Shown here: positions 1 to 58,426 of the stretch, piece by piece
How positions within the stretch are numbered: position 1 is the first letter of the stretch
How the letters are laid out: every line of letters begins with the position of its first letter
Source of the DNA: Gammaproteobacteria bacterium
GTDB taxonomy: Bacteria > Pseudomonadota > Gammaproteobacteria > Eutrophobiales > Eutrophobiaceae
Direction of reading: 5' to 3'
Length of the DNA: 64,000 nucleotides
Assembly (NCBI GenBank): GCA_965207165.1
Contig: OZ242265.1
Location: 278,415-342,414, forward strand
Notes under the pieces: generated by a model
Told to the model about the DNA's origin: nothing
Seen by the model: only the letters and a program-made list of their open reading frames with translations
Database searches by the model: none
Position numbers and translations under genes: made by a program

Positions 1-427
1 TTGACGCGCTTTCAATTTCAAATTCCGCATCCAGTAATAACGACATGGCAGGCAATTCGGATGCCGGGTCGGCGTTGACAATGCTGCCGCCTACCGTGCC
101 CTTGTTTCGCACCTGGAAATGGGAAATGTGCTCGATTGCGTGAACCAGTACCGGTATCCGTTGGCGCAGACCTGCATGCTTTTCCGCAAATCGCTGGGTG
201 GTGGTTGCTTTTACTCTTACGCCGCTCTGCTCATCAACAACAAGATTGGGCTGTTCGACGTTGCTGACATCGATCAGGACACTGGGTGTGGCCAACCTGA
301 AATTCATCGCTGCAATGAGACTTTGTCCACCAGCCAGAATCTTTGCATCGTCTCCATGTTCCTTTAACAGGGTGCACGCGTGTTGTAAATTTTCAGCCCT
401 GTGGTAGTCAAACTTCGCTGGTTTCAT
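1..427 (-). CDS. Xanthine/CO dehydrogenase-family FAD-binding (medium) subunit, CoxM/CutM-like; runs off the left edge of the window
   Basis: Not in the ORF track because it is open at the edge. Manual translation from ATG 427 gives MKPAKFDYHRAENLQHA...KILAGGQSLIAAMNFRLATP...HFQVRNKGTVGGSIVNADPASELP, with the AGGQSL and RNxGTxGG..ADP FAD motifs; it lies directly downstream of coxG. Confidence 0.92.
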   Translation of the reverse strand, partial: MKPAKFDYHRAENLQHACTLLKEHGDDAKILAGGQSLIAAMNFRLATPSVLIDVSNVEQPNLVVDEQSGVRVKATTTQRFAEKHAGLRQRIPVLVHAIEHISHFQVRNKGTVGGSIVNADPASELPAMSLLLDAEFEIESAS

Positions 428-446
428 ATCAGTTAACCTGTAACAG

Positions 447-905
447 TCAGTTTTGCATTGGTTCGAAATGATTCCCCATCTCGTCAATGAAGTTCTTGAA
501 AAACTCCCTGGTCATGTGCTTGGAAACTCCCGTCATGACCCTCCCCCCGATGCCGGCGATCAACCCGCCCACATTAGCATCACAGGACCAACTCATCAAG
601 GTGCCGGCAGCGGCCGGTTCAAGGCGGCAATCTACCTCCATGTTCACAAAACCCGGCTTGCCGGCGCCCTCGGCATTCAAAATGTAATGGTGTGGAAACT
701 CGACGTCGGTAACACGAATTTTTCCTTCATAGTCACCTTTAATTGCCGCCACCCCCAGTGAGAGGGTTACCTTGTACCTGCCGTCTTCAGCGGGCTCCAT
801 GGACTTGCAGCCGGGAATGACCCTGACGAGGATATCAATGTCGTGCAGCGCGCTCCATACCTGTGCAACGTCGTACGGGAGTTCGGTACGACCCTCAAGT
901 TTCAA
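447..905 (-). CDS. coxG: CoxG-like SRPBCC protein
   Basis: VWSALHDIDILVRVIPGC...LGVAAIKGDYEG...VGGLIAGIGGR pattern; adjacent to the CoxM-like gene. Confidence 0.85.
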   Translation of the reverse strand: MKLEGRTELPYDVAQVWSALHDIDILVRVIPGCKSMEPAEDGRYKVTLSLGVAAIKGDYEGKIRVTDVEFPHHYILNAEGAGKPGFVNMEVDCRLEPAAAGTLMSWSCDANVGGLIAGIGGRVMTGVSKHMTREFFKNFIDEMGNHFEPMQN

Positions 906-935: not shown

Positions 936-2651
936 TTAAAATGTAAACTTTAACTCGGTGAACAGCGAATCATTTCTCTGGAATTCGCCAAAGAATGAAT
1001 CCGGATTGCCGGAAATAACGTTGATACCGACACGGGCAGTGAACTGGGCGTTAAAATTATAGCCGACAAGGCCGCGGAACCACGTTGCGCGCTGACGATG
1101 TCCGAACTCATGCAAGCCGAACAATTCCACGTGCAGCGTCTTGCCCGGGAGAAAGTCATTGAACATGAACAGGGTTGCGACATGGCGCGTCCGGTCACGC
1201 AGGCCGTTAAATGCATTTGATTCGCCCCCGATGATGTATCCTGACTCGCCACAGTATCGTTGCGCCGCACAGGCCACCGTACCCAGCGAGGTAAACTGGC
1301 CGGGTGTCGGGTCGCGCAGGATCTCGTCACGCCAGATCTGGGCCGATACAAACCATGGTGTCTTGAACAGGGTCCTGGGACCGATATACAGATATTGGTC
1401 CAGACCTATCAGGGCGGTAACACTGTCGGCCGTGACTGTCTCAATGTCCGGCTCGTAGAAGCGTTGTCCGAAATTGTAGACGAGTTCGCCGCGCATCACC
1501 GTGCCCGCAAACTGGCCGGGCAGGAACTCCAGGGCCTTGTCAAAGGATGCGCCAAGCAAATCATAACGGTGGCGGGTAAAATCGATGCCGCCACCAAACC
1601 CAGCCCTCGGTCCGGCAATTTGGACAGCAAAATTGGTAGCCGCTTGCGGAAGTCGATTTCCAAGAGTGTAAAATGGAATGTCCTCGAACAGGTGTCCGTA
1701 ATGGAACGAATAGGTCATATCCGAAAATGGACCTAAACCGCCACCCGTGCGTGCGCGCCAGCGCACGAAGACTTCGGATTTGTCGAAAGCATCGCCTTCA
1801 TCCCATGCATAGTTGTCGAAGAAATCCGGTTCCTGGAACAGTCCTTCGGATACATTGATGACCTGGTCCGCGAAATCGACGACAGCCAGGGTGTAGGGAT
1901 GTTGCGCTTCTTCTTCATGACGAAAACCGGGGAAACGGGCCGGCGTGTAGTCCCAGTTCCAGATTACCTGCAACTCCTTGGTGATGCCGCCCGGAAGCCA
2001 GTCTACCCTGGACAGGTCATACTTTATGTTCACCATGTCCTGCGGGATCATGAAGCGCTCCTGCTCGAAGGTCAGCGGGTTGCGGAAGTTGCGCGGCGTT
2101 ACGACATCAAGTACGGTCACGCCGTCGGAACGGCCCCAGGTCACTATCTGCCGCCCCGCCCGTATATGCAACGGATGGTAATTGATATCCAGGTAGGCTT
2201 CCCGGACCAGGGGATCCCACTTGTCGTGGAGGCCGTCCTTGAAGTTGGTCTCCCAGTTCTTGGCGATAGAGCTGTCTTTATCTTCGATGTCATACATCCC
2301 GTCATAGTAACCACGGAGTTTTAACACCGGTGTTATATGCTTGATGCCCTTGTATACCATCTCAACGCTCAGTTCGGTACGAAGCGCGTTGACCGTATCG
2401 TAGTCCGACCGGTTGCTCGGAGTACCGAGTGCACCCGGCCCGAGTAAGACGCCAGGGGCAACTGCGAGGGCAAACTCCCTGGCCTGGTCAGGCTTGCCGC
2501 CTATGCGAAAATCACCCAGTACGAAGACCTCTCCACTAATCTCAAGGTCGCCAAATTCATATCGGGCAGAACTTTCAGCCGACCACCCCAACAGCGCTAC
2601 GGCAACAATCGATAACAAGGTGGTGATATAACGTCGATTTGAATTGATCAT
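936..2651 (-). CDS. DUF1302-like outer-membrane beta-barrel protein
   Basis: Signal peptide, REAYLD..LHIRAGRQIVTWGRSDG..VLDVVTP motif, C-terminal aromatic strand ELKFTF. GGAGG RBS precedes ATG 2651 (track start 2744). Confidence 0.8.
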   Translation of the reverse strand: MINSNRRYITTLLSIVAVALLGWSAESSARYEFGDLEISGEVFVLGDFRIGGKPDQAREFALAVAPGVLLGPGALGTPSNRSDYDTVNALRTELSVEMVYKGIKHITPVLKLRGYYDGMYDIEDKDSSIAKNWETNFKDGLHDKWDPLVREAYLDINYHPLHIRAGRQIVTWGRSDGVTVLDVVTPRNFRNPLTFEQERFMIPQDMVNIKYDLSRVDWLPGGITKELQVIWNWDYTPARFPGFRHEEEAQHPYTLAVVDFADQVINVSEGLFQEPDFFDNYAWDEGDAFDKSEVFVRWRARTGGGLGPFSDMTYSFHYGHLFEDIPFYTLGNRLPQAATNFAVQIAGPRAGFGGGIDFTRHRYDLLGASFDKALEFLPGQFAGTVMRGELVYNFGQRFYEPDIETVTADSVTALIGLDQYLYIGPRTLFKTPWFVSAQIWRDEILRDPTPGQFTSLGTVACAAQRYCGESGYIIGGESNAFNGLRDRTRHVATLFMFNDFLPGKTLHVELFGLHEFGHRQRATWFRGLVGYNFNAQFTARVGINVISGNPDSFFGEFQRNDSLFTELKFTF

Positions 2652-2688
2652 GCCTGTTTCCTCCAATATAAGATTTACAATAACCCCA

Positions 2689-5244
2689 TCATGATGCGCA
2701 CTCCGCGCTAACCGAGTCGGATATGACCGTGCGAGCACGATCATCTTTCATCTGGGATCCTCCCCCCCTGTCTTCCAGATCCAGTCCACGTGTCAGAAAG
2801 CCGGGTCGAAGCAGACTCCATACTACCGGGGCTGCGAAGAAGCTGAACAGAAACGTGGTAAGCAGGATAAGCGCCATGCTGAAACCAACGTACCCAACGT
2901 AGAGCGGGACTATGGAGACCGCCAGACAACCGGTAAAAAGTGCAGTAAACGAAAAGATCAAAGGCTCCCGGACCAGCGTAAAGGCGTCAAACAGAGCCCG
3001 TTTAAAATTTCCATCTTTCGGGAATTCTTCACGAAAACGGTACAGAAGATAGACTTCTGCATCAATCCCGACACCGCTTGCGATAGCCAGTGCCGCGGTA
3101 ACATTTGAATTGAATTCGATCCCGATCAGGTGTATCAGGAACATCCAGATCAGGATACCTATAGCCAGTGGGAACATCAGGAGCACGGGGGCTATTACGG
3201 ATCGCAGCATCAAGGCGGCTGCGATAAACGATGCCAATGCGCTGAACAAAGTCGCAAGCACCATCCATTTCTTGATGGAACGGTTGAATGCATCCGCGAT
3301 ACCGACATTGCCGGCCGCCAGCTCCAACTCAACGTTCAGGGCTTCGGCGTCCCAGTTTGCCGCGACATAGTCGTTCGCCCGTTGGATCAACGCCGCCACG
3401 GTACCCGGGCTGGTATCCCGCACGAAGGCAATTATTGCCGTGTTGCGGTACTCCGGGCCAACAACAAAGTCAAACGCGCCAGGCGTACCTCCCGTCAGGA
3501 AGTAGATTGCTTCATTAACTGCCATCTGCGCCCGGCCTTCAGTCGGGATACTGAAATGCTCGTCCTGGTCCTCATTCAGAAAGCGGTTCATGATCTTTAT
3601 GTAAAAGGGCAGGCCCACGACTGCCGACACCTCTTCCGCCTCGGCCAGGTGCCGGGAAAGTTCATCCATGGCAACCAGTGCCTCCGGGGTTTTGGCGTCC
3701 CCGGGATTTTTCCCTTTCGCAAGAATGGCGAGCGTGTAGACGCCACCGAATAACCGGGTGATCTCCTGTTCCATCTCGTAGAGTTCATTGCCTTCCCAGG
3801 ATCTGGTCAGGTAGTTATGTACGGCATACGTATTGTTCTGGCCGGTGCTGATCTCAGTGGCGAGAAAACGTCCGATTGCAGTATCCTTGGCCACGGGTAT
3901 TGACTGCCAGATACTCAACGAGATGACCACGACAAAACCGGTCAGGCAGATCACGGTCCATTGTACGGTGGAGTTGTAAATGAGCGGCCGCACCATGACA
4001 GCGGTTGTTCTGTAGATTAACCCGCGCTGTGTCTTACGTCCTACCTGGGCGTATTCCATGGCCTTGCTTGTGCTCGCAGCAGGCATGTATGACAGCAGCG
4101 CGACGAGGAATGTCGGAACGATGACAATGATCGCAAGCAACCCGAAGGCAGTGACCTGACCCAGGACCCGGACATTGTCGAAAGGAACAAACGAGAGTAC
4201 GACAAATGCCATCAGGTCGGTACAGAGCACGACTATCAACGGGCGGGTCATGTGAATGAGTGTCTGTTCCAGTGCCTCCGGTACCGAACGAACTCCGTCC
4301 AGCTCATCGGTCAGCAGGCGTTTGATAAACAATACGCTGTGAGAAGCCGCTACTGCCAGAATGATGAAAGGCGCAATCAGTGCGGCTGATGAAGTAAGCA
4401 CTTCACCTTCAAAAACACGCTGAAATGCAAAGGCCCAGATCGAAGCCATTATTCCTACGCAAAGTGGTGGAAGAACGCCTACGACTGACCTGAATGCAAA
4501 AATCAATACGATCGCTATTACCGTTACCACCAGAATGAAGGCGCCCAGGATATAGGGCAGGCCATCACTGTTAACCCATCCAATCAGAATAGGGGAACCG
4601 GCTGCCGTAACGTCATGCGTCTCGTCGTTTTCCGCGCCTATGATTCTCTGCACTTCCTTGTAGATGGCAATCGGGTCCGTTACAGGCAGTTCAAGTCCCT
4701 CACGGACATCCTGCAACCCGGTCCTGAAGTCTGCCTGTATTATGACTGCTGACCAGTCTTTGGATACCAGAGCGCCCTTCAGCGCGGCGTTGTTTTCAAT
4801 CCCGAAACGCACCCGCGCAAGTTCTTCCGCCGTTTCGGGCGCGCGGTTCGGGTTATCAAACAGGATACTCGCATCAAGCACCTCTGCAGTGCCTTTCAGG
4901 TAGCGTGAATTAATGGTGGAAAGTGAGCGGATTGCATAAGGAATTACACCATGCACCTCCTCGAGCTGGTCGGTAATTCTCTTTATTTTTGCCAGTGTAT
5001 CCGCCTGTACGATGCTCTCCCCATCCTTGCGCGAAACCATGATGGTTACCAGGTTCGCGCCCCCGAACTTGCGTTGCAGTTCTTCATTGAGCACGACAGA
5101 GGGATCATCATCAGGCGGCCAGCGGTTCGGGTCGTCGTAAATCTTTAGCCCGGACGCGATATACGCAGAGCCCGCTGTGACGATCAATGTCACAACGAGC
5201 ATCACGGCGCGATAACGAACCAGAAATGAAGACAGACGTTCCAT
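2689..5244 (-). CDS. MMPL/RND-superfamily transporter (851 aa)
   Basis: Two repeats of one TM helix + large periplasmic loop + 5 TM helices; GVGIDAEVYLLYRFREE motif; sits between DUF1302-like and DUF1329-like genes. Confidence 0.9.
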   Translation of the reverse strand: MERLSSFLVRYRAVMLVVTLIVTAGSAYIASGLKIYDDPNRWPPDDDPSVVLNEELQRKFGGANLVTIMVSRKDGESIVQADTLAKIKRITDQLEEVHGVIPYAIRSLSTINSRYLKGTAEVLDASILFDNPNRAPETAEELARVRFGIENNAALKGALVSKDWSAVIIQADFRTGLQDVREGLELPVTDPIAIYKEVQRIIGAENDETHDVTAAGSPILIGWVNSDGLPYILGAFILVVTVIAIVLIFAFRSVVGVLPPLCVGIMASIWAFAFQRVFEGEVLTSSAALIAPFIILAVAASHSVLFIKRLLTDELDGVRSVPEALEQTLIHMTRPLIVVLCTDLMAFVVLSFVPFDNVRVLGQVTAFGLLAIIVIVPTFLVALLSYMPAASTSKAMEYAQVGRKTQRGLIYRTTAVMVRPLIYNSTVQWTVICLTGFVVVISLSIWQSIPVAKDTAIGRFLATEISTGQNNTYAVHNYLTRSWEGNELYEMEQEITRLFGGVYTLAILAKGKNPGDAKTPEALVAMDELSRHLAEAEEVSAVVGLPFYIKIMNRFLNEDQDEHFSIPTEGRAQMAVNEAIYFLTGGTPGAFDFVVGPEYRNTAIIAFVRDTSPGTVAALIQRANDYVAANWDAEALNVELELAAGNVGIADAFNRSIKKWMVLATLFSALASFIAAALMLRSVIAPVLLMFPLAIGILIWMFLIHLIGIEFNSNVTAALAIASGVGIDAEVYLLYRFREEFPKDGNFKRALFDAFTLVREPLIFSFTALFTGCLAVSIVPLYVGYVGFSMALILLTTFLFSFFAAPVVWSLLRPGFLTRGLDLEDRGGGSQMKDDRARTVISDSVSAECAS

Positions 5245-5282
5245 AAGATAGCGTCAGTTCCGGATTGGAAGTGCGTATTGAA

Positions 5283-6476
5283 TTATTCCCAGAACAGTAT
5301 TTTTCGAACCGGCTCTTTACTGAGGTTGTCAAGACTCACGATGTCACGGGGCATCTCGTCGTAATTGATCCAGAACGTGTTCATATACCAGTCCATCCTG
5401 AATCCGCTCTTGGGATCATAGAAGTACTCACCCGCCCAGATCATCTGCCAGTCTTCAATCGGATCATTGCCATTCTGCAGGCGCGGGTCGGTATTTGCTA
5501 CCGCTCTCCGGTTTACGCGCTGGCGGGTCAGCTCTCCGTTTGAATCGAAGGTCTCCTCATACCAGCTGCTGCCCGTCTTTATCCCGATGATGCGGCGCTG
5601 CTTGGCATACCAGTAAGATTTTGAGTGTGGCGTCAACTCAAGTATGTAGGCAGGTTCGCAGACACCGTCCAGGCCGACGTTGACTTTTTCACCCTTGGTC
5701 TCCGTCGTAAATCCCATAGTTCCATCAGGTTGCCCGCCGTACAGCGTGTACCCGACTACCTCGTAATCGATGTCGGGAAAGGGCTTGACCTGTGGAAAGT
5801 CTTCCCAGCGCACGATAGTGCCGGGAATGATGTCCTGGCGCGCCGCCTGCGGCAGACGGCGAACGCGTCGCGCTGCGGGTAAATAGAGGAACTCGTCGTT
5901 AAAATCTTCACCGTAGTAGATCGTCGTGGACATGCCGAGCCCGCGGAAGTCGTTGGGCGCCACGAATGTAAACATATACTGGGCCCGCACCTTGTCGACC
6001 AGACTTTTCGGGATCCCGTCCTGGTTCAACCGGTAAGCGACCATCCATTCGAACAGGCGCTTGTCACGTATGGTGCCGTTCGGGGAGATAAGGTCGATGG
6101 ACCATTCCGTGATGTAATTATCTCCGAATTCATTGAAGTAAAGCGCCGTGTAGGAGCGGTCATGAATTTCGCGCCCATCCTGCTTGACGCGTTCTTCTAC
6201 CGATATTTCCCACGGATAGGGCAGGCCCGCTTGTGTCCAGCGGTCATAAATGTTGGGCCCAATCTCTGCATAGGAAGAGTTATGCCAGGGCTGTGGTTTC
6301 CAATTCACCGTCTCATCACCCCATTTACAGACGTATGTGCCGGGCTCCGTGCCGGGGCTGACTGAGTATTCCTTGCCCAAAATCATTTCTGCGGCGAGCG
6401 ACCCCGGAAACAGGTAAAACGACAGGAGCAACAGAATGGTTGAGAATATGGGGAACACGCGGTTCATAGATTTCAT
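5283..6476 (-). CDS. Periplasmic LolA-like / DUF1329 'outer membrane lipoprotein-sorting' protein
   Basis: Signal peptide; FVAPNDFRGLG and FLYLPAARRVRRL...PGT..WEDF motifs. GGAGG RBS precedes ATG 6476. Confidence 0.8.
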   Translation of the reverse strand: MKSMNRVFPIFSTILLLLSFYLFPGSLAAEMILGKEYSVSPGTEPGTYVCKWGDETVNWKPQPWHNSSYAEIGPNIYDRWTQAGLPYPWEISVEERVKQDGREIHDRSYTALYFNEFGDNYITEWSIDLISPNGTIRDKRLFEWMVAYRLNQDGIPKSLVDKVRAQYMFTFVAPNDFRGLGMSTTIYYGEDFNDEFLYLPAARRVRRLPQAARQDIIPGTIVRWEDFPQVKPFPDIDYEVVGYTLYGGQPDGTMGFTTETKGEKVNVGLDGVCEPAYILELTPHSKSYWYAKQRRIIGIKTGSSWYEETFDSNGELTRQRVNRRAVANTDPRLQNGNDPIEDWQMIWAGEYFYDPKSGFRMDWYMNTFWINYDEMPRDIVSLDNLSKEPVRKILFWE

Positions 6477-6615: not shown

Positions 6616-6668
6616 TCGAATCGTTTATATTTTCGTACATAGTAACGTTTCTAATTTCTGCAACGCAA
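6616..6668 (-). promoter_or_regulatory. Sigma70-like promoter (TTGCGT-N18-TACTAT) with LacI-type operators at 6640-6653 and 6616-6629
   Basis: TAGTAACGTTTCTA (6640-6653) and TCGAATCGTTTATA (6616-6629). Bases 6639-6658 are the exact reverse complement of 9945-9964. Confidence 0.8.
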
Positions 6669-6757: not shown

Positions 6758-7810
6758 TTACGATAATCGTTTCTCCCCGGTACATGCTTCTCCCGGCCCG
6801 GTGCTGGATTCGCGTACCATCACTTCAACGGGATGGGGTTCCAGCAGTTCCGGCGTTTGTTTGCCCTGTGTCATGGCGATCAACAGCTTTGCTGCGCTCA
6901 TACCCATCTCATAGGCAGGTTGGCGCACTGTGGTAAGCCGCGGGGTCAGCAACTGCGCAGTAGGAATATCGTCAAAACCGACAATACTGACATCCCCCGG
7001 TACGTGTATCGTATTCGACCGGCAATACTCCAGGGCGCCTATAGCCATCAGATCATTGGCGCATATCAGTGCGGTAGGGCGTTCAGGCTCAGGCACGTTG
7101 AGAAGTATTTCGGCAAGTTTATAACCGGTGTCCATCTGGTAATCGCCTGTCTGTATGTTCATCTCGTCGGGATCTATGCCGCCCATCGCCAGGCCTTCAC
7201 GGTAACCGGATAAACGCTGTTCCGATGTCCAGTGGGTGACAGGGCCGGCAATACAGGCAAATCGCTTATGTCCGAGTTCAACAAGATGGGTAGCTATCTC
7301 CCTGGCGCCGCGTCGACCGTCGGCAACAACGGCTGGAAGTTCCAGGCCCGGAAAACGCTCGTCAACCAGGACGACCGGCCCGAGTGACTGCAGTTCCAGG
7401 AGAGACCGGGGGGATTCCTGGAAGCCGCTTTCATAAATGACGCCGTCCACCCGTTTACTGCGCAGCAACCTGGCATTGCCGAATTCCGCTTCTTCGGTGT
7501 TTTCCGCGCTGCACAGCACCACGAGCGTATCGTGCATCGCTGCCGCCTTTACCACACCGCGGGCGAGCTGGCTGAAGAACTGGTTCACCAGGTCGGGGAC
7601 AACAAGACCGATGGTTGACGCCGACTGCCGTTTCAGGTTGCGCGCCGATTCGTTGGGAGTGTAATCCAGGGCCCGGATCGCGTTCAGAACGCGCGTCTTG
7701 CGCGCTTCGCTTACCTGCCCCCTGTTGTTCAGGACGTAGCTGACTGTGCTGACCGAGACCTGGGCCTGCTCAGCCACGTCTTTCATCGTGGGGCGAACTT
7801 GCTGCTTCAT
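6758..7810 (-). CDS. LacI-family transcriptional regulator
   Basis: HTH TMKDVAEQAQVSVSTVSYVLN, hinge YTPNESARNL, and sugar-binding domain with IVGFDD...LTTVRQP. Confidence 0.97.
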   Translation of the reverse strand: MKQQVRPTMKDVAEQAQVSVSTVSYVLNNRGQVSEARKTRVLNAIRALDYTPNESARNLKRQSASTIGLVVPDLVNQFFSQLARGVVKAAAMHDTLVVLCSAENTEEAEFGNARLLRSKRVDGVIYESGFQESPRSLLELQSLGPVVLVDERFPGLELPAVVADGRRGAREIATHLVELGHKRFACIAGPVTHWTSEQRLSGYREGLAMGGIDPDEMNIQTGDYQMDTGYKLAEILLNVPEPERPTALICANDLMAIGALEYCRSNTIHVPGDVSIVGFDDIPTAQLLTPRLTTVRQPAYEMGMSAAKLLIAMTQGKQTPELLEPHPVEVMVRESSTGPGEACTGEKRLS

Positions 7811-7819
7811 GCGAAGACG

Positions 7820-8587
7820 CTATCCCCCTGCGGCCCAGGATACGATGGATGACCAGAGTTTGGCGTAATGGGGCCAGTTCACAAACTCGGGCGGGGCCCA
7901 GTGCGGGGCCACGTCGGAAGCAAAAGCCACGCTGCGGCCACTACCGAATTCTCCTGCCACAAGCAGCGGGTCGTCGCCGGATGCCGCAATCACCGTGGTT
8001 CCGGGTTTGGCTTTTAGTTGATTGTAGCCGAGCAGTATCGGCCAGTCGGCAGGCGTACCGCCGAGCGCCGTGTGATCAGGGTTGGGGAATGTTGCAACCA
8101 GGCCCTCAGGGACCTCAACCCTGTCATCACGGTCCAGCATCGTGACGGGAAGCACCCGGGCCAGCGGGCTGGCCTGGTAACGCGCCCGGCCGTCGATACC
8201 GGAGAATGACATATAGCCCCCGGCCATAAGCAGGCCGCCTCCGCCTTCGACATAGTCCGCCAGCAGGACCAGGCGGTTTGTCGTGCGTTCCGAGCGCTGG
8301 AAGGTTTCATCGCACAGCAGGAAGGAGTTGGACCCGATATCGCTGAGAATGACGACATCAAAGGTGTCGAGTTCTTCCCTGGTTACGGGGAAACGGCTGG
8401 ATACTTCGTGCGCCCGTATATACGTAACCTTGTACCCGGCAGCTTCCAGAGCAGCGAGGAAAACCCCGGCGCCTTCCTCGTATTCAGTCGTATGAAACTG
8501 GTCGAACCCCTTCAGGTGCACCGTGTGCTTAATCCAGGACTCACCTACTACCAATACACTGAGAGGAGAATTCGTATCTGAATTCAT
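7820..8587 (-). CDS. Class I glutamine amidotransferase-like protein (DUF1355/GATase1-like)
   Basis: LVVGESW..HLKGFDQF, DVVILSDIGSNSFLL, GGGLLMAGGYMSFSGIDG and SDVAPHW motifs. Confidence 0.85.
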   Translation of the reverse strand: MNSDTNSPLSVLVVGESWIKHTVHLKGFDQFHTTEYEEGAGVFLAALEAAGYKVTYIRAHEVSSRFPVTREELDTFDVVILSDIGSNSFLLCDETFQRSERTTNRLVLLADYVEGGGGLLMAGGYMSFSGIDGRARYQASPLARVLPVTMLDRDDRVEVPEGLVATFPNPDHTALGGTPADWPILLGYNQLKAKPGTTVIAASGDDPLLVAGEFGSGRSVAFASDVAPHWAPPEFVNWPHYAKLWSSIVSWAAGG

Positions 8588-8654
8588 ATCGACTATCCCT
8601 CCATTTGCTTGCCTGAAGCAGCCGTTTTACCGGTATCAAGCGGGGTTGATTGTG

Positions 8655-9176
8655 TCAAAGCAACCGGTCGGTCACGGATTCGGGCAGGACCAGGGCTTCC
8701 GGCACCTGTGGGAGTGCGATCTCCCGCATGTCCCAACCGACCATTTTTTCCGCGATCAATTCATAAACCTTTCTGCCCGAGGCGACGCGGTATTTAAAAT
8801 AGTTTTCGGCATAAGGATGGCCGGTGTAAAAATACTTTTCAAATACCAGTTCGTCGACCAGGTCCACCAGTTCCGGATCTGTCACCTGTGTCATGGTCCC
8901 GTGGATGCGCACGCCGTGAACCGTCGCGTACTCGTCACCGGAATCGACAAGGCCGGTCAAAGGCCTTCCTGCCTGAACATTGTCCGCGTGGCGCCCGGCG
9001 GCATCGACCGGCAGCAGAATCCGTTTATCGTGTACGACATAGAATAACGGGGACATATAGATTGACCCGTCTTCGTTTGTAGTTGCGAGCCGGATGGTTT
9101 TCTGGCGGGACAGGTAGGCCCAGCGTTTATTGCCGCGCAGGGGCAGGAAGGTGCTGGGAGTTATTTCTTGACTCAT
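8655..9176 (-). CDS. Pyridoxamine 5'-phosphate oxidase-like (split beta-barrel flavin-binding) protein
   Basis: IRLATTNEDGSIYMSPLFY...LVDSGDEYATVHGVRIHG pattern; GGAG RBS before ATG 9176. Confidence 0.8.
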   Translation of the reverse strand: MSQEITPSTFLPLRGNKRWAYLSRQKTIRLATTNEDGSIYMSPLFYVVHDKRILLPVDAAGRHADNVQAGRPLTGLVDSGDEYATVHGVRIHGTMTQVTDPELVDLVDELVFEKYFYTGHPYAENYFKYRVASGRKVYELIAEKMVGWDMREIALPQVPEALVLPESVTDRLL

Positions 9177-9177
9177 G

Positions 9178-9642
9178 TTATTTTCCTCCGTTACGCAGGG
9201 ATCTGAGTTCTTCGCTGAACTCGGGAGCTTCAACCAGGCCGTAACGCGGTGACGGGCCGCTGGTCCAGAAAAACACGGTTTTTACACCGGTCGCTTCGAG
9301 GGTGTATTTGTATCCACCCGGCAGGTAGATGTGCTCGCCGGCCCCGGCTTCCAGGTAGACGACACGACCCTCGGCGTCTTCGACCTTGAGACGGATTTTC
9401 CCCTCCAGGCAGTAGTGTGATTCATCGAAATTTGCCTGGTCCCAGTGATAATCATCGTGGTCAGGTTCCTGGTAACAATACCCATGGCGAAAGTGGCGCG
9501 CATCGTCGCGTTCCTGGGAGACGAAGATATTGGTTCCAATGCCTTTCGCAAACGGTAACCTGGGCATGGCATGGATTTCTTCCGGGTTGATGACGCGCGG
9601 GTATCTCATCGAGGCGTCGTCGTAGAGGCTGTAGCTGGTCAT
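9178..9642 (-). CDS. Cupin-fold protein (EutQ/DUF861-like)
   Basis: DESHYCLEGKIRL...AGEHIYLPGG cupin motifs; GGAGG RBS before ATG 9642. Confidence 0.7.
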   Translation of the reverse strand: MTSYSLYDDASMRYPRVINPEEIHAMPRLPFAKGIGTNIFVSQERDDARHFRHGYCYQEPDHDDYHWDQANFDESHYCLEGKIRLKVEDAEGRVVYLEAGAGEHIYLPGGYKYTLEATGVKTVFFWTSGPSPRYGLVEAPEFSEELRSLRNGGK

Positions 9643-9665
9643 TATTGTTCCTCCGATAGCGGGTA

Positions 9666-9847
9666 AATAATCGTTTCTTGTCGTCCCCTGCAAAGCGAGG
9701 CGGCGTGTTGAAAATCAAGCCGGATTATTGCTGCGAAGGGCAACTATATTCGTTTATACCCTAAACCAGGTTTATATACCCGTCAAGCAGATTTTTCCAG
9801 TTTATTCAAGGCGTAGCCTGCAGTATATAGGTTTATAATCGTTTATC
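9666..9847 (-). promoter_or_regulatory. Leftward promoter TTGACG-N17-TAGGGT with LacI-type operator copies at 9745-9758, 9666-9679 and 9834-9847
   Basis: -35 at 9786-9781 and -10 at 9763-9758. Plus-strand sites TATATTCGTTTATA, AATAATCGTTTCTT and TATAATCGTTTATC share the CG-centred motif. Confidence 0.65.
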
Positions 9848-9935
9848 CGCCGGCCGGCAAATTACCTTTGACACCGCAGTGCCGCAGAAAGTCAAGCTTG
9901 CATCGGAAGTTGTCTTTTTTGAGGTTCACAGCAAG

Positions 9936-9964
9936 TTGACCTTGGAAATTAGAAACGTTACTAT
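9936..9964 (+). promoter_or_regulatory. Sigma70 promoter TTGACC-N17-TACTAT with overlapping LacI-type operator TAGAAACGTTACTA (9950-9963)
   Basis: Near-consensus hexamers with a 17-bp spacer; 20-bp identity with the site at 6639-6658. Confidence 0.85.
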
Positions 9965-10057
9965 CCTCCGCTGTGAACATATGAGCAGCGGGCTGATTCA
10001 TATCAGCGCACGAGACATAGCAAAACGATTAGCGGCATACATTGCAAGAGGATAGAA

Positions 10058-19554: not shown

Positions 19555-19591
19555 TAGAAACGATTCTATACAAATATGCAAACCCTGTAAA
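19555..19591 (-). promoter_or_regulatory. Leftward promoter TTTACA-N17-TAGAAT with overlapping LacI-type operator TAGAAACGATTCTA (19555-19568)
   Basis: The operator matches the 9950 site at 12 of 14 positions and overlaps the -10 element of the exbB operon. Confidence 0.78.
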
Positions 19592-19599
19592 ATCCTCCT

Positions 19600-19761
19600 G
19601 AATTAAGAATTAAGAATTAAGAATTACGAATTACGAATTGGGGGGGTGCGTCACTGCGTGCCCCGAGCCGGCTTGCGGAAAACCTGCGCTTCAATGGTAA
19701 ACAGCCGCGACTTTCATTCCTAATTCCTAATTCCTAATCCGTAATTCGTAATTCCTAATTC
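19600..19761. repeat. Inverted heptamer arrays (GAATTA[A/C])x~6 ... (ATTC[C/G]TA)x~6 around a ~75-bp core
   Basis: Direct reading: left arm 19600-19641, right arm 19716-19761 in the opposite orientation. Confidence 0.9.
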
Positions 19762-19774
19762 TGCGTTGACGGAT

Positions 19775-20830
19775 TCAGTTACTGCCGCGGAGCGGACTTC
19801 CAATCCGTTCTATAAACAGGTTGATGAAGCGGGGCCAGTCGAGTTCGTACTGGACGTCAAGCTGTGCGGCTCCTTCAGCGCCGGGCCACAAGTTGCGCCC
19901 CCCAACCGATACGCCATAGTTGATCCCATGGTGAATATCAACGTCGACATATAACCGCTCCCTGGTGACAAGGGTGGGGTCGATGAGGCTTGCGACCGCA
20001 ATCTGGTCATACATGAAATAAATCCGGTCCGGCTCTTTTGCAAAATGCTGCCCCAGGGTATTTTTCAGAAGCCGGGTCAGCGGGGTATCCGTTGCCACTA
20101 TTTGTTCATACCAGGCATTGGATAACGAACTTTTTCGGGATACGTTGAGCGGAGATAAATCAATCGGTATGCCCGAGCGAAGCGTGGTATACGCGGCTTC
20201 CGGGTCTACCCAGAAATTGAACTCCGCGTTTGGCGTAATATTGCCGCCACCATCCGGAAGAATCGCTATCGCTCCCCCCATAATGACCAGCCGCTTCACA
20301 TTTTCGGCAACGCCGGCATCTGCCCGGATTGCCTGGGCAACATTGGTCAACGGGCCTATGGCAACAAGCGTGATCTCTCCCGGGTTTTCCAGAACCGACC
20401 TGACCATAAAGGATGCCGCACTTTCAGCTTCCGCTTTTTTTTCGGCGTAACCGCCGGGAGGGACCGGCGCTGGTTCGTCGGAATACCAGTTACCGTATTC
20501 ACGCACTGCAAAATCACTTTTTTCGTGGACCAGCGGCATATCTGCGCCCCTGTATACCGGTATGTCAGACTGCTTTGCTATTTCAAGCATTCGTAAAACA
20601 TCTGACGTGGCGCGCTCCACGCTGTCGTTACCGGCCACGGTGGTAATGCCCAGGATTTCGAATTCCGGAGACTGCAGCGCCAACATCAGCGCCATGCTGT
20701 CATCGTAAGGAGGCATGACAAAGTCGGTATCAAAAATGATTTTGATACGGTCCTCGCCTCGTGCAACACCGGCAACCACGCCGGTAAACATATAAACGGC
20801 TATGGATAAAATAAGTAACCTTCTCAACAT
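19775..20830 (-). CDS. Inosine/uridine-preferring nucleoside hydrolase family protein with signal peptide
   Basis: IIFDTD...DD, ITTVAGN, LVAIGPLTNVA, IMGG and AEFNFWVDPEAA motifs; AGGAGG RBS. Confidence 0.92.
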   Translation of the reverse strand: MLRRLLILSIAVYMFTGVVAGVARGEDRIKIIFDTDFVMPPYDDSMALMLALQSPEFEILGITTVAGNDSVERATSDVLRMLEIAKQSDIPVYRGADMPLVHEKSDFAVREYGNWYSDEPAPVPPGGYAEKKAEAESAASFMVRSVLENPGEITLVAIGPLTNVAQAIRADAGVAENVKRLVIMGGAIAILPDGGGNITPNAEFNFWVDPEAAYTTLRSGIPIDLSPLNVSRKSSLSNAWYEQIVATDTPLTRLLKNTLGQHFAKEPDRIYFMYDQIAVASLIDPTLVTRERLYVDVDIHHGINYGVSVGGRNLWPGAEGAAQLDVQYELDWPRFINLFIERIGSPLRGSN

Positions 20831-20927
20831 GACCCCTCCTGTTTGAACGGCAGTCGATGCGACGTTTGTTATAATATGTGCCCGGTAGACTATGTTGCAA
20901 ACTATTATGCGGACTACGGGTTATCTT

Positions 20928-21890
20928 ATGCGGCAAACATTGAAATTTCTGGCAGCCTTCCTGTATCTGTCTGTTGCAATATCCTGCGCTGATTCCGAAC
21001 AAACTGCCCAGGGTTCCGCCCCGGGCGCAGATCGTCCAACGATTGCCCTTATCATGAAATCCCTGGCAAACGAGTTTTTTGTCACCATGGCGGATGGGGC
21101 CAGAGCCCACCAGGAGTTAAATGATGAGCGTTACGACCTGATAATCAATGGGATCAAGAATGAAGTGGACCTCGCCCAGCAGGTTGCCCTGATTGACCAG
21201 ATGATAGCCTCGAACGTGGATGCCATCGTCATCTCTCCGGCGGACTCGAAAGCGGTTGTTCCGGCGCTGGCGCGTGCGGAAGCGGCCGGTATTATCATTA
21301 TCAACATAGATAACCGGCTGGAAAAAGACATACTCAGTGAATACGGCTTAACAATCCCGTTTGTCGGACCGGATAATTTCCAGGGGGCCGAAATGGTCGG
21401 CAGGCACCTGGCGTCAAAACTGGCGTCCGGGGACCAGGTCGCGATACTGGAGGGCGTGCCTACCGCGTTTAATTCGCAGCGGCGTACCGCAGGGTTCAGA
21501 AAGGCGATGAAAGACGCGGGGATGAATATCGTGGCGCAACAAAGCGCGCAATGGGACCAGACAATGGCAGTCACGGTAACGGCCGCGATCCTGGTGCAAC
21601 ACCCCGACCTGGCTGCGATTTTGTGCAGTAACGACAACATGGCGCTGGGCGCGGCGGCGGCCGTCTCGCAGGCCGGCAAGGAAGACCAGGTGCAGATAGT
21701 CGGGTTTGACAATATTAGCGCGCTGCACGACCTCATCAGGGGCGGCAACGTCCTGGCAACCGTAGACCAGCATGCGGACCTGCTGGCCGTGTACGGCATC
21801 GAATTCGCGCTGGAGGCCTTGCAGTCCGATTTGCCCCTGGAAGACAAGACAACTCCTGTTGACCTGATCACCGGAACCTCCATAGAGTAA
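20928..21890 (+). CDS. rbsB: Ribose-type sugar ABC transporter substrate-binding protein
   Basis: ALIMKSLANEFF, FVGPDN, CSNDNMALGA and VGFD motifs; ribose specificity is inferred. Confidence 0.85.
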   Translation: MRQTLKFLAAFLYLSVAISCADSEQTAQGSAPGADRPTIALIMKSLANEFFVTMADGARAHQELNDERYDLIINGIKNEVDLAQQVALIDQMIASNVDAIVISPADSKAVVPALARAEAAGIIIINIDNRLEKDILSEYGLTIPFVGPDNFQGAEMVGRHLASKLASGDQVAILEGVPTAFNSQRRTAGFRKAMKDAGMNIVAQQSAQWDQTMAVTVTAAILVQHPDLAAILCSNDNMALGAAAAVSQAGKEDQVQIVGFDNISALHDLIRGGNVLATVDQHADLLAVYGIEFALEALQSDLPLEDKTTPVDLITGTSIE

Positions 21891-21897
21891 CCAGGGG

Positions 21898-23424
21898 ATG
21901 GCGGCGGCTCGTTTAAGTATTCAAAACCTTCACAAGTCGTTTTCAGTACCTGTCCTGACTGGTATCAATCTGGCCGTCAAGCGCGGGGAAATACATGGAC
22001 TCGTTGGTGAGAATGGCGCCGGCAAGACCACGTTCGGCAGTATCCTGGCCGGCTTTGTCAGCAAGGACAACGGCATGATAACCCTGGACGGGGTTGCATA
22101 CGAACCGTCCGGTCCGAAAGACGCTTTTGAGGCCGGTATCTCCTGTGCCGCGCAGGAATTGAGTTTGATCAATCCCCTGAGCGTTACGGAAAATATCGCC
22201 TTGCGAAAATTGCCCCATAGTTGTTCCGTTATCTCCGGTCAGGAACTCGAACAGCGAACCCGTTCGATACTGCAGCGTGTCGGCCTGGGGTCTCTCGACC
22301 CGAACACGCGCACCGGGACACTGGGCCTGGCTGAGCGCCAGTTGGTGGAATTTGCCAAGTCGGTCTTCCTGGATTGCAGGGTACTGATCCTGGATGAGCC
22401 GACGGCCGCCCTCACGGCACAACAAGCCTCTGTTCTGCACGAAATCGTCACCGGGCTGGCTGCGTCCGGGACATCGGTTATTTACATCAGTCACCGCTTA
22501 CAGGACGTACTGGAGGTATCGGATAACGTTACCGTTCTCAGGGACGGGCGTATCGTAACTACCGCTCCCGCCGGTTCCATGGCCGTAGCCGAGCTTATGG
22601 AATACATGAGCGGCGATTTTCAAACCGGAAACAAAACCACGCTGTCCACCGCCGCGCAGACACCGGAACCTGTTCTTGAAGTGGAGCACATAACCACTGA
22701 AGAACTGCCCCATGAGATAAGTTTCACGGCCCAGGCAGGAGAGATAATCGGTATCGCCGGGTTGTCGGGTTCGGGTCGCAGCGAGTTGTTGAATGCCCTG
22801 TTCGGTCTGACCCCGTTGACGGGCGGCGCTGTCAGCCGGCACTCGGCAGGCGGAAAAGCACGTATCAGCAACCCGGGAACGGCAAAAAGATCAGGGATGG
22901 CATACCTGGGCGAAGACCGGCAATCCATGGGCTTGTACCCGGGCCATCCGGTGTTGACAAACATGATGATACCCGGAGACCTGCAAGGTGTTGCTTCGAT
23001 GTCCCTGCTTGATAACAGGCGTGAGGCCGCTGCCGGGGAAAAACTGGTCGAAGAGTTGAGCGTTAAATGTGACGGCCTGGACCAGGATATAGATCAGCTC
23101 AGCGGAGGGAACCAGCAAAAAATACTGATTGCCAGGTGGTTGTACTGTAATTCGGACATATTCCTGTTTGACGAACCCACGCGAGGGATCGACGTCGGCA
23201 CGAAAAACATGATATATAACCTGATGTTCGATTTGCGCCATGAGGGCAAGACCATACTGTTTACGTCCAGCGAAATTGAGGAACTCATGGCAGTAAGCGG
23301 TCGCATATTGGTTTTATCCAAGCGCAAGCTGGTAGCAACATTCATAGCGGATAACTGGTCCGAGACGGAGATACTGGCAGCCTGTTTCAGGGAATTCACA
23401 ACGCGCACCCCGCATGTGCATTAG
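21898..23424 (+). CDS. rbsA: Sugar ABC transporter ATP-binding protein (RbsA-like, tandem NBD)
   Basis: GENGAGKT, LDEPTAAL, LSGGNQQK and DEPTRGIDVG motifs. Confidence 0.92.
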   Translation: MAAARLSIQNLHKSFSVPVLTGINLAVKRGEIHGLVGENGAGKTTFGSILAGFVSKDNGMITLDGVAYEPSGPKDAFEAGISCAAQELSLINPLSVTENIALRKLPHSCSVISGQELEQRTRSILQRVGLGSLDPNTRTGTLGLAERQLVEFAKSVFLDCRVLILDEPTAALTAQQASVLHEIVTGLAASGTSVIYISHRLQDVLEVSDNVTVLRDGRIVTTAPAGSMAVAELMEYMSGDFQTGNKTTLSTAAQTPEPVLEVEHITTEELPHEISFTAQAGEIIGIAGLSGSGRSELLNALFGLTPLTGGAVSRHSAGGKARISNPGTAKRSGMAYLGEDRQSMGLYPGHPVLTNMMIPGDLQGVASMSLLDNRREAAAGEKLVEELSVKCDGLDQDIDQLSGGNQQKILIARWLYCNSDIFLFDEPTRGIDVGTKNMIYNLMFDLRHEGKTILFTSSEIEELMAVSGRILVLSKRKLVATFIADNWSETEILAACFREFTTRTPHVH

Positions 23425-23478
23425 AGCGGATACGGCCAGGCGTTATTCCCCGGGTTACAACATGAGAATTCCAGTCTT

Positions 23479-24423
23479 ATGAGATCACTCGTAAAGGAAA
23501 ATTTTATTTTTGCCTCCCTGCTCCTGCTGATTGTTTTTTTTGGCCTGGTCGCGGACAACTTTTTTTCACTTGTCACCCTCAGGACAATTCTTAACCAGTT
23601 GCCGGCGTTGACGGTGGTCACCGTCGGCATGACACTTGTGCTGATAGTCGGCGGTATCGACCTGTCCGTCGGTTCTGTCCTGGGATTCTGCGCCACGATA
23701 GTCGGCATGGCGATGATGAACTGGGATTTTTCCATCGTTACCGCATGTTTCCTGGCAATTGGCGCAGGCATAATCTGTGGCTCCGTGAACGGTCTCCTGG
23801 CGTCATACCTGGCCCTGCCTTCCTTTATCGTTACCCTGGGTATGCTGGAAATGGCCCGCGGCATGGCCTATATCACTACGGACTCGCAGACTATGTATAT
23901 CGGTGCGTCGATTCAGAAACTCGCGCTGCCGATTTCAGGGACGGGCGTCTCCCCGGCGCTCGTAATTGCGCTTTCGACCGTTGTTGCGGCCCAGTTCATT
24001 TTGACCAGGACAGTACCCGGACGTCATATCGTAGCCGTGGGCGCCAACACCCGGGCCGCAAGGATGTCCGGCATTGATACAAAGCTTTACCGTATGGTTG
24101 TGCTGGCCGTATCAGGGGCGCTGGCAGGTCTTGGCGGCATATTCAATGCCGCTTACCTGGGGGCAGCCGACCCGAACGCGGGCGCCGGCATGGAGTTGGC
24201 GGCAATTGCCGCGGCCGTCATAGGCGGTACCAGCCTGATGGGAGGGCGCGGCAGCGTTGCCGGGGCATTCGCAGGGGTGCTTATCATCGCGATATTACAG
24301 AACGGACTGGCGCAGCTCGGCGTATCGGAACCTGCCAAACGCCTGATCACAGGAAGCGTGATAATTATCGCGGTATTTATCGACAGCTGGCGCATCCGCA
24401 GGGACAGGATACGAACTGGGTAA
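23479..24423 (+). CDS. rbsC: Sugar ABC transporter permease (RbsC-like)
   Basis: GGIDLSVGS, PSFIVTLG and ELAAIAAAVIGGTSLMGGRG motifs. Confidence 0.92.
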   Translation: MRSLVKENFIFASLLLLIVFFGLVADNFFSLVTLRTILNQLPALTVVTVGMTLVLIVGGIDLSVGSVLGFCATIVGMAMMNWDFSIVTACFLAIGAGIICGSVNGLLASYLALPSFIVTLGMLEMARGMAYITTDSQTMYIGASIQKLALPISGTGVSPALVIALSTVVAAQFILTRTVPGRHIVAVGANTRAARMSGIDTKLYRMVVLAVSGALAGLGGIFNAAYLGAADPNAGAGMELAAIAAAVIGGTSLMGGRGSVAGAFAGVLIIAILQNGLAQLGVSEPAKRLITGSVIIIAVFIDSWRIRRDRIRTG

Positions 24424-42859: not shown

Positions 42860-43232
42860 ACCGGCACAATTCGCGCAATTCCGGCTTTACGGCCACAGCA
42901 GGACGGCAGGTTTAAGAGGCAGCCCGCTAATCGTCAGGACCTGGTTGAACTGCGGTCAGGGAAATAAAACCGAAATTGCGCGTGTCCGGTTCTTGTAATA
43001 GAATAATACGCCGACCGGAACATAACTGATTTTAAGAATTTCATAATGATTTAATGTTTCCTGTTGTATAATTTGCCGTTGTCTGCTTGACTCTTGCCAG
43101 AACAGGCAGAATACTAAAACAAAAACAGGTGGATATCGAAAAACCGATCTGATTGAATTGGACCATGCAGCCTGGCTGCAGGGATTTTTGAAGTTTGCCT
43201 TACATCATCACCGCTGGGGAGGTTATTTCCTT

Positions 43233-44012: not shown

Positions 44013-44028
44013 CAGAGGAGAGCCAGAC

Positions 44029-45405: not shown

Positions 45406-45418
45406 TCGATAAAGAAAA

Positions 45419-46000: not shown

Positions 46001-46026
46001 CGTATCTGTTGTGAGGAAGGTTAACC

Positions 46027-46428: not shown

Positions 46429-46440
46429 CGGCGTGTCCTA

Positions 46441-47070: not shown

Positions 47071-47088
47071 TTCCGGAGCCAGATACTC

Positions 47089-58325: not shown

Positions 58326-58414
58326 CTATTTGATATTATTATAAATGTGTTGTTGACGGTTATTTTTCCTTCCTGTACAGTTCCGTGTGTATCGTTGGAT
58401 CAATCGTAGGATCA
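58323..58414. other. Integrase attachment arm: IHF site (58323-58335) and 12-bp tandem arm-type repeats (58391-58414)
   Basis: Minus-strand TATCAAATAGTTA fits WATCAANNNNTTR; ATCGTTGGATCA/ATCGTAGGATCA is a direct repeat. Confidence 0.7.
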
Positions 58415-58426
58415 GGAGAAAATGAC

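Follow-up and report, generated by a model that had tools for sequence, protein, structure and literature searches.

A three-gene envelope module at the head of a catabolic operon

The locus described here lies in a 64-kb stretch of a gammaproteobacterial genome (contig OZ242265.1), called the window throughout; coordinates are positions within it, and the labels G and L stand for genomes and loci, respectively. Close to its left edge, three genes encode a DUF1329-like periplasmic protein, an RND transporter and a DUF1302 outer-membrane barrel. They are followed by coxG and coxM, the order on the minus strand being DUF1329, RND, DUF1302, coxG, coxM. Further into the window lies a second machine, a proton-channel motor cassette whose arm carries a vWA domain, and the relation between module and motor is the subject of this work.

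All three module proteins fit their family models above the Pfam gathering scores, but weakly. The first gene (5283-6476, minus strand) encodes a short variant of the DUF1329/LolA-like periplasmic proteins (Pfam LolA_like 5.4e-10, DUF1329 3.3e-9), which passes the cut-offs of both DUF1329 (PF07044, 36.9 bits against 23.1) and LolA_like (PF17131, 39.7 against 30). Its reading frame could start as far up as 6557, and the start that bears a signal peptide (MKSMN) is at 6476; the signal peptide has no lipobox Cys. The second gene (2689-5244, minus strand) encodes a transporter of 851 amino acids (aa) that matches Pfam MMPL in two stretches (9e-14; 51.6 bits against a cut-off of 20.5). The best NCBIfam match of this pump, TIGR00921 HAE3 over residues 9-806, reaches 94.5 bits and stays far under the cut-off of 351.9. 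Being above the MMPL cut-off and below that of HAE3, the protein is filed as an HAE3-like RND protein of the MMPL family.

The third gene (936-2651, minus strand) encodes a DUF1302 barrel of a short clade, with 571 aa including a signal peptide (Pfam DUF1302 2.1e-14). Its reading frame could start at 2744, with the signal-peptide-bearing start (MINSN) at 2651. The match to PF06980 scores 53.9 bits (cut-off 23.2) and covers only model positions 4-369 of 541. The first predicted strand starts directly after the signal peptide, and the protein ends in ...LKFTF. A structure model built from an alignment of 18 sequences is barrel-like and of low confidence (mean predicted local distance difference test, pLDDT, 57.8; predicted template modelling score, pTM, 0.63); no more was drawn from it than the broad class and the lack of an N-terminal domain. 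The best Foldseek matches of this low-confidence model are OmpM1, OmpF and AlgE (E about 1e-9), and these porin and AlgE neighbours agree with the 18-strand barrel model given for the DUF1302 family in the text available from PMC13499233. Residues 164-203 of the barrel (window about 2040-2160) form the best-conserved stretch of the family, RAGRQ..TWGRSDG..LD..P.NFRNPLTFEQERF.IP. This segment, modelled with very low confidence, is the sole part that aligns with long DUF1302 barrels (about 29% identity), and it could be an in-pore or partner-binding element.

The earlier note on this DNA had described the module as running straight into coxG and coxM, and the annotation bears this out. The first catabolic gene after the module is coxG (SRPBCC; 447-905, minus strand; Pfam COXG 4.3e-25), and a gene for a coxM-type FAD-binding subunit (2-487, minus strand; Pfam FAD_binding_5) continues past the window edge. 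The left flank begins with coxS, coxL, a Rieske oxygenase gene, a short-chain dehydrogenase/reductase gene, DUF3891, an HpxZ/AtzH-like gene and a second Rieske oxygenase gene, and continues with genes for an alpha/beta hydrolase, an Asp/Glu-racemase-family protein and butyrate kinase and a phosphate butyryltransferase-like gene.

Absence of a YCF48-like propeller gene

Unlike the four-gene clusters in which DUF1302, DUF1329 and RND genes stand together with a gene for a YCF48-like propeller (BNR, COG4447), the window has no YCF48 gene in cis, and the same holds for the related loci (0/19). The earlier note had seen three genes with no room for a propeller, and had allowed that one might lie just left of the window. 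The gaps measure 38 nucleotides (nt) between the first two genes (5245-5282), 37 nt between the next two (2652-2688) and 30 nt to coxG (906-935), so that no propeller gene fits between them. Pfam gave no PF14870 match in the window or the left flank, and tblastn with five YCF48-like queries found no such gene in the 64-kb window or the 20 kb leftward of it, nor in any of the 19 barrel-relative loci with flanks of up to 10 kb, while the same kind of query did match the positive-control locus L008. Since the propeller is missing from all 19 related loci, its absence is a trait of the barrel clade and not a local loss. A propeller fused to a module protein was also considered and is ruled out, as none of the three proteins has a PSII_BNR match.

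Elsewhere in the 4.53-Mb genome, PF14870 (YCF48/PSII_BNR) has four matches, which fall in two genes at 0.867 and 1.756 Mb; both adjoin other MMPL genes, away from the window. One canonical cluster of the order YCF48-MMPL-DUF1302 (718 aa)-DUF1329 lies at 1.75 Mb among aromatic-catabolism genes. A YCF48-like protein could still act on the window module in trans, and the role of the propeller may otherwise have been taken by the pump, which is 50 aa longer, by the divergent carrier or by a paralogue in trans. Locus L009 (G000:C1:862000-874000) holds a third YCF48-like and MMPL pair of this genome, followed by a 669-aa protein without a Pfam match, which occupies the place expected for a DUF1302 barrel; a gene for a XylR-type sigma-54 activator adjoins.

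A motor cassette with a vWA arm

The motor operon (14540-19493) encodes ExbB, two ExbD proteins, the vWA arm and a helical protein in one strand-run. It opens with an ExbB/TolQ-like proton channel gene (18852-19493, minus strand; Pfam MotA_ExbB 1.5e-25), followed by two ExbD/TolR-like genes on the same strand (Pfam ExbD), one with the transmembrane (TM) Asp (18430-18852) and one with Asn at that place (17977-18411). In the second ExbD, Asn replaces the proton-binding TM Asp found in the first and in classical ExbD/TolR proteins, and the ExbD dimer of the motor may carry only one protonatable site.

The next gene (16858-17970, minus strand) encodes a TonB-like arm of 370 aa, composed of a TM helix, a linker rich in Pro and Glu and a vWA domain (Pfam VWA; alignment of 28). 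The TM helix has S18-x3-H22, with the His kept in every aligned sequence that covers the helix; the Leu and Ser further on in the SHLS motif are not evident. The linker spans residues 35-100, and Pfam VWA_4, VWA and VWA_2 match at residues 156-320. The residues of the metal-ion-dependent adhesion site (MIDAS; DxTxS...T...D) are present, with D162, T164, T215 and D266 invariant and S166 at 90% in the alignment of 28. Pfam finds no TonB_C domain in this protein. The last gene of the five (14540-16831, minus strand) encodes a secreted all-helical repeat (TPR-like) protein of 763 aa with a signal peptide. It has no Pfam match, TPR models included, and its structure model is confident, with about 40 paired helices (mean pLDDT 84.7).

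The window also contains a conventional TonB2-type cluster on the plus strand (43158-48426), with genes for a DUF3450 protein, a 458-aa DUF3450 and MotA_ExbB fusion, ExbB, ExbD, TonB with TonB_C, and a TPR protein. As this cluster is complete, the genome has a conventional Ton system besides the vWA cassette.

A predicted regulon with a common operator

A CG-centred palindrome of 14 bp, TAGAAWCGWTTCTA, occurs with at most one mismatch at three sites in the 4,527,523 bases of the genome (window 6640, 9950 and 19555). All three lie within 13 kb and in promoter regions, namely before the module, in a divergent promoter region at a phosphoribosyltransferase-like gene, and before exbB. Two operator-like palindromes stand upstream of the DUF1329-like gene (6616-6629 and 6640-6653) and are kept in relatives; the one at 6616 has two mismatches, as have ten further sites elsewhere in the genome. 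The site at 9950-9963 falls in the divergent promoter region 9694-10057, and the perfect one at 19555-19568 lies 62 nt upstream of exbB and overlaps a -10-like TAGAAT. When a 20-bp matrix was trained on 29 sites of relatives only, the same four window places topped the genome scan (27.2, 27.1, 25.3 and 20.3, the next match being 19.2), and the operator before exbB scored almost the same as that of the module (27.1 against 27.2).

The sites before the DUF1329-like gene are kept across two orders, in relatives down to 60% protein identity. A perfect site before exbB is found in seven of nine cassette-bearing genomes of the genus (window, G350, G360, G362, G351, G366 and G359). The presumed binder of the palindrome is a LacI-family repressor encoded next to the module (6758-7810, minus strand; Pfam LacI and Peripla_BP_3). 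It is closest to CytR and RbsR (NCBIfam 2e-75 and 1.4e-65, both below cut-off). The locus thus has the predicted features of a LacI regulon, a LacI helix-turn-helix (HTH) with a sugar-binding fold and palindromic sites in the target promoters, all read from sequence. The genome-unique operator predicts co-regulation of the module and the exbB operon, with the repressor as the likely ligand of the sites. The claim that the two share an operator is therefore upheld as a prediction. The motor is not contiguous with the module: 8 kb separate the two, a stretch taken up by the LacI operon and by a divergent one with phosphoribosyltransferase-like, HAD and SnoaL genes.

A simple promoter scan found no sigma-70-like promoter before the DUF1329-like gene; the match before exbB (TTTACA-17-TAGAAT), which overlaps the operator, is no more than chance would give, at 0.9 per region. 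RNA libraries from one study contain pieces of module genes in four of four runs, each of which also holds at least one of the cassette-gene pieces listed, and one contig piece reaches 29 nt upstream of the exbB start. These runs consist of contigs in which levels, strands and ends cannot be read, uncovered parts are uninformative and carry-over of DNA is possible, and they give no more than a weak hint in favour of a link between module and motor.

Distribution of the barrel clade and the motor

The short-barrel clade is small, with 18-19 loci in scans of one genome per species. Its members come from metagenome-assembled genomes of uncultured Gammaproteobacteria, at 60-89% identity, and from two of Binatia, at 47-53%; a wider, alignment-based scan returned the same family, with 19 loci of which one was new. 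The DUF1329-RND-DUF1302 trio is kept in related loci, with a rearranged order in L021. In 15 of 18 related loci, the two Binatia among them, the module has molybdenum (Mo)-hydroxylase genes as neighbours, which ties it to the hydroxylase pathway. Genes for LacI, GATase1-like, PNPOx and cupin proteins adjoin it in most of the gammaproteobacterial loci.

Phylogenetic profiling of the motor against the barrel clade gave a divided answer. Within the order of the window (126 genomes, one family), the arm occurs in 10 genomes, the short barrel in 11 and neither in 115. The 11 genomes with the barrel are the same 10 with the arm plus G347, which is 88% complete and in 760 contigs, and no more than about 13 kb separates the two genes. 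DUF1302 proteins of any kind are present in 77 of the 126 genomes, and of the 22 other genomes in the genus, 21 have them. The family is thus far commoner than the arm, and the canonical cluster works without the motor; given this and their joint presence, the motor in the genus follows the short barrel and not the canonical cluster. A sample of 300 genomes at class level contained no ortholog of the short barrel and a single strong one of the vWA arm (G139, in the same place as G441); a further 11 vWA matches were weak and confined to the domain. In a neighbouring order, that of G007 (81 genomes), the arm was found in 65 genomes and the short barrel in 8, all of them with the arm.

The cassette within DUF1302 clusters of a neighbouring order

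In G006, G007 and G010, according to Pfam annotation, the cassette is immediately preceded by a YCF48-like gene and a DUF1302 gene of the long type (755-890 aa). With the Pfam-checked proteins of these genomes as tblastn references, genes were labelled at 26 cassette loci from 24 genomes, of which three (L042, L047 and L051) are cut by contig ends and 23 are informative. A long DUF1302 gene stands directly upstream of the cassette in 20 of the 23, and the full order RND-YCF48-DUF1302-ExbB-ExbD-ExbD-vWA is seen in 13. The exceptions are L030, L033 and L052, the last of which has RND and YCF48 genes without the barrel. Behind the helical protein, CobW and DUF1329 genes follow in five of six loci examined. 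From these conserved upstream and downstream genes, the usual home of the cassette is inside the classic four-gene cluster. The proposal that the motor may energise or gate a DUF1302 barrel gains from this synteny, whereas an obligate pairing with the short barrel does not hold.

The extra length of the long barrels is an insertion rich in Gly, Asn and Ser after the first strand and not a plug. At L064-L068, a gene for a CobW/COG0523-type GTPase lies between the helical-repeat and DUF1329 genes; the island of the window has none.

G010, from another order, carries a second pair of vWA and helical-protein genes, without ExbBD, directly beside its copy of the island (L033 and L021, G010:C2). Upstream of this pair are a concentrative nucleoside transporter gene, an isochorismatase-family gene and hydantoinase B, and the full cassette of G010 is on another contig (L032). 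In a tree of arms, the window, G366, G359, G356, G423 and the island copy of G010 form a clade (support 100/99). The G010 island arm is on a long branch, and its placement with the cluster copy of G010 is not rejected by an approximately unbiased (AU) test (p = 0.11), for which the group was named after the tree had been seen. As judged from these sequences, the island arm may stem either from co-transfer or from independent recruitment.

Further genes of the island and the window

Upstream of the LacI gene and on the same strand lie GATase1-like, PNPOx-like and cupin-like genes (7820-9693, minus strand). The divergent operon (10058-12648, plus strand; Pfam) contains a nicotinate/nicotinamide phosphoribosyltransferase-like gene, which matches NF006629 with 509.5 bits (cut-off 405), an HAD phosphatase gene and a SnoaL-like gene. 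Last behind the motor cassette is a gene of the aldehyde:ferredoxin oxidoreductase (AFOR) family (12676-14397, minus strand; Pfam AFOR_N and AFOR_C). This family uses a tungsten or molybdenum pterin; the gene is absent in G366, G356 and G364 (L034 and L035 are among the loci without it) and has an operator-like site of its own in G423 and G359.

Among the island genes, the NCBIfam names nicotinate phosphoribosyltransferase, butyrate kinase and HpxZ are above cut-off, whereas GbcA-like Rieske, PcaD-like hydrolase, EutA/arylmalonate-decarboxylase-like and RihC-like hydrolase are below it. Going by such annotations, a pyridine-ring compound, a purine and a nucleoside were considered as possible substrates.

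A RihC/RihA-like nucleoside hydrolase gene is divergent, across a 61-nt spacer, from the genes of a ribose-type ATP-binding cassette (ABC) transporter (binding protein, ATPase and permease; 19775-24423). Despite the CytR/RbsR-like repressor, no operator-like site was found between the hydrolase and transporter genes in this region. Between the nucleoside hydrolase gene and the exbB promoter (19600-19770), two inverted arrays of 7-bp units (of the type GAATTAG/GAATTAC) stand on either side of about 80 bp. The genome has at least 68 arrays of this kind, often as inverted pairs about 100 bp apart, which suggests a family of elements like the repetitive extragenic palindromic (REP) sequences. RNA-library contigs at 19600-19770 show many variant joints and a very high summed depth. 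Farther right, a tyrosine integrase gene (58385-59614; Arm-DNA-bind_3, Phage_int_M and Phage_integrase) is followed by an M48 peptidase-like gene and by one for a 975-aa UvrD-type helicase with topoisomerase zinc ribbons; the integrase region may be the edge of another mobile element.

Discussion

The window module shares with AmeABCD-type four-gene clusters (Castellaniella defragrans AmeABCD; Sama_1588-1591; PP_0765/0766 with PP_2018/2019) a barrel, a LolA-like carrier and an HAE3-like RND protein among catabolic genes. It differs from these clusters in its order DUF1329-RND-DUF1302, in its weak family matches and in its short barrel of 571 aa, which lacks the long insertion. Its regulator is of the LacI type rather than the LuxR type, and the operator is common to the module and the motor cassette. 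The repressor resembles CytR, RbsR and PurR in its HTH and periplasmic-binding-protein fold and in a CG-centred site that overlaps promoters, and the likeness to CytR and RbsR extends to the neighbourhood, where a nucleoside hydrolase gene and a ribose-type ABC transporter adjoin the regulon. In contrast to these regulators, however, every NCBIfam equivalog match is below cut-off, and the regulon consists of envelope machines and a Mo-hydroxylase pathway.

The earlier note had taken the motor to be part of an undescribed system. This view has to be given up for the motor itself, which belongs to the class of vWA force transducers (PMC12204202, Mol Biol Evol 2025). As portrayed in the main text of that paper available to us, the class shares with the window a tolQ/exbB-like gene, two unlike tolR/exbD-like genes, an arm made of a TM helix with a conserved His, a linker and a vWA domain, and a gene for a helical-repeat or TPR protein. 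That text states the function to be unknown and suggests gliding motility, and it contains no mention of DUF1302 or RND. The cassette studied here differs from the class in its ties to DUF1302 and RND, which consist of synteny in one order and of a common operator in another, and in a helical protein without a Pfam TPR match.

With TonB-ExbB-ExbD, the cassette has in common a proton channel, an ExbD pair and an arm composed of an N-terminal TM helix and a Pro-rich spacer that would bridge to the outer membrane. Unlike in TonB systems, TonB_C is missing from the arm and both plug and TonB box from the barrel, and the cargo would probably pass by way of a periplasmic carrier and an RND pump. Tol-Pal (TolQRA with the TPR protein CpoB) likewise combines a motor, an arm and an accessory periplasmic helical-repeat protein. 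The window cassette, however, has no TolB or Pal genes and appears to be an inducible, island-borne system and not a housekeeping system of cell division.

Taken together, these results suggest that the barrel-pump module and the vWA motor probably work together. We favour a reading in which the two form one regulon, the module moves a substrate of the hydroxylase pathway and the arm energises the outer-membrane step, and we would give it a probability of about 0.5. The island, present or absent in the genus as a block, would be one predicted LacI-family regulon with three promoter regions, in which the repressor may keep both operons shut until an effector appears. One promoter would then drive the YCF48-less module, fused to an operon for a CoxGMSL-type molybdenum hydroxylase and a Rieske oxygenase. 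Another would drive the cassette, with an ExbB pentamer-type channel, two unlike ExbD proteins, an arm built of TM helix, Pro-rich linker and vWA domain, and the helical-repeat protein. Barrel, carrier and pump would move a poorly soluble or amphiphilic substrate of the pathway across the envelope, and the proton-driven vWA arm would energise the outer-membrane end, at the barrel or at the carrier, in the way that TonB serves its receptors. The three operons under the operator encode no predicted outer-membrane protein other than the barrel, which is therefore the obvious target of the arm. Contact between arm and barrel, the nature of the substrate and the direction of transport are all putative in this proposal. 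When the mature barrel (residues 30-571, alignment of 18) and the periplasmic part of the arm (30-370, alignment of 28) were co-folded, two runs without controls gave a score of 0.00, which is evidence neither for nor against contact.

Several observations weigh against this reading. A plug in the barrel had been suggested as a point for structure prediction, and neither the sequence nor the low-confidence model has a plug-sized domain or an N-terminal extension resembling a TonB box. Co-occurrence within the order of the window mostly reflects one island that comes or goes as a whole, and related genomes do not count as separate cases. Most genomes of that order with the DUF1302 family have no motor (77 with the family and 10 with the arm). 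The order of G007 includes 57 genomes with a motor and no barrel of the short clade; in G006-G009, arm and short barrel lie megabases or contigs apart, and none of six motor loci of this order has an operator. The two Binatia genomes that have relatives of the barrel are of unknown completeness and showed no vWA match at E <= 1e-10. The motor and the short-barrel clade are therefore in part independently distributed across genomes, the outcome that the earlier note had named as contrary to its idea, even though they occur jointly in the order of the window (10 of 11). G356 and G364 of the genus, as well as G423, have no operator before exbB; the gene sits 16 nt behind the nucleoside hydrolase gene in G356 and 74 nt behind it in G364, and in G423 the operator precedes the AFOR gene rather than exbB. 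Finally, export is the known activity of this family of RND pumps, and the text available from PMC6394551 reads AmeABCD as an efflux system.

Some of these observations would suit co-regulation without coupling, in which the cassette is a passenger of the island that has another envelope job, or serves the two other RND and YCF48 clusters, and has come under the same repressor by capture near promoters. The cassette is near-universal in the order of G007 (65/81) irrespective of the short barrel (8/81), the operator is missing from the motor loci named above, and the two further MMPL and YCF48 clusters of the genome itself (0.867 and 1.75 Mb) have no motor of their own. A mere passenger fits poorly, however, with the genus, where 8 of the 22 other genomes have the motor, all 8 with the short barrel, and 21 have DUF1302. 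It also fits poorly with an operator before exbB that scores 27.1 against 27.2 for the module, and with a conserved home elsewhere that is inside the DUF1302 cluster. We regard such uncoupled co-regulation as a serious but rather unlikely alternative. Still less probable, and in our view very improbable, is that the shared palindrome is a chance or relic similarity and that the operons are regulated independently. The lack of a sigma-70-like site before the DUF1329-like gene and a match before exbB within chance are in keeping with it. Sites of LacI-family regulators are typically CG-centred palindromes, though, as is this one of 14 bp, and the only three copies in the genome stand in promoter regions of one 13-kb stretch, next to a gene of the LacI family. 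A matrix trained on relatives ranks the window sites on top, and the sites are conserved before the DUF1329-like gene in two orders; before exbB, 7 of the 9 cassette-bearing genomes in the genus have a perfect one.

The direction of transport is a separate matter, and uptake seems to us somewhat likelier than efflux. The opposite case, which we consider unlikely, is a module of the AmeABCD kind that expels a toxic substrate or intermediate as an efflux or tolerance pump, where the motor, if involved, would aid export or the repair of the outer membrane. The HAE3-like RND family is indeed known for outward transport. Inner-membrane RND pumps are, however, already proton-driven, and classic tripartite exporters work without a TonB-like arm, so an extra one would not be needed for export. 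The module moreover heads a catabolic operon under the control of a repressor, which also favours uptake. Deletion of ameABCD lowered the tolerance to monoterpenes and raised the accumulation of Nile Red, according to the available text of PMC6394551, and the export of a cell-wall component was proposed by Price et al. in the available text of bioRxiv 072470. Against this stand the homologues PP_0765 and PP_0766 of Pseudomonas putida, which were needed for growth on Tween 20 and butyl stearate (text available from bioRxiv 2020.07.04.188060), and a co-folding study whose available text proposes substrate transport in which DUF1329 would move to and fro between the barrel and the pair of RND and BNR proteins (PMC10866462). 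The need for these homologues on fatty esters and the proposed carrier shuttle are further grounds on which uptake is favoured.

A wider proposal, which we put forward tentatively, is that vWA-headed arms may be the missing energiser of DUF1302-type transport, forming with it a second, plug-less, proton-powered route across the outer membrane for oily or amphiphilic molecules, with the motor as a modular cassette. The MIDAS head would pull on the barrel or on the LolA-like carrier, and at the inner membrane the cargo would pass to the RND protein. On this view the cassette would be free to leave its RND-YCF48-DUF1302-DUF1329 home, and a substrate-sensing repressor could have wired it to the propeller-less three-gene variant on a mobile catabolic island. 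Searchable texts, with supplements not covered, yielded no literature that links vWA cassettes to DUF1302 clusters. What is new in the window is a variant of three genes in a changed order, without a propeller and joined to a Mo-hydroxylase operon; a cassette that stands outside the cluster in which it is usually found; and a predicted repressor site that wires this cassette to the module.

Clusters of DUF1302, DUF1329, BNR and RND genes have been associated with strong fitness phenotypes since 2016, and a mechanism has been lacking, while the vWA force transducers, proposed in 2025, still have an open outer-membrane target and function. Two lines of evidence, found in different orders, now connect the two, conserved synteny in one, and a genome-unique operator together with joint presence and absence in the other. 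The version in the window offers the simplest case for study: its three transport genes come without a propeller, motor cassette and repressor are each present once, and the catabolic pathway linked to them could point to the cargo. If the proposal is true, vWA arms would power a second kind of proton-driven transport at the outer membrane.

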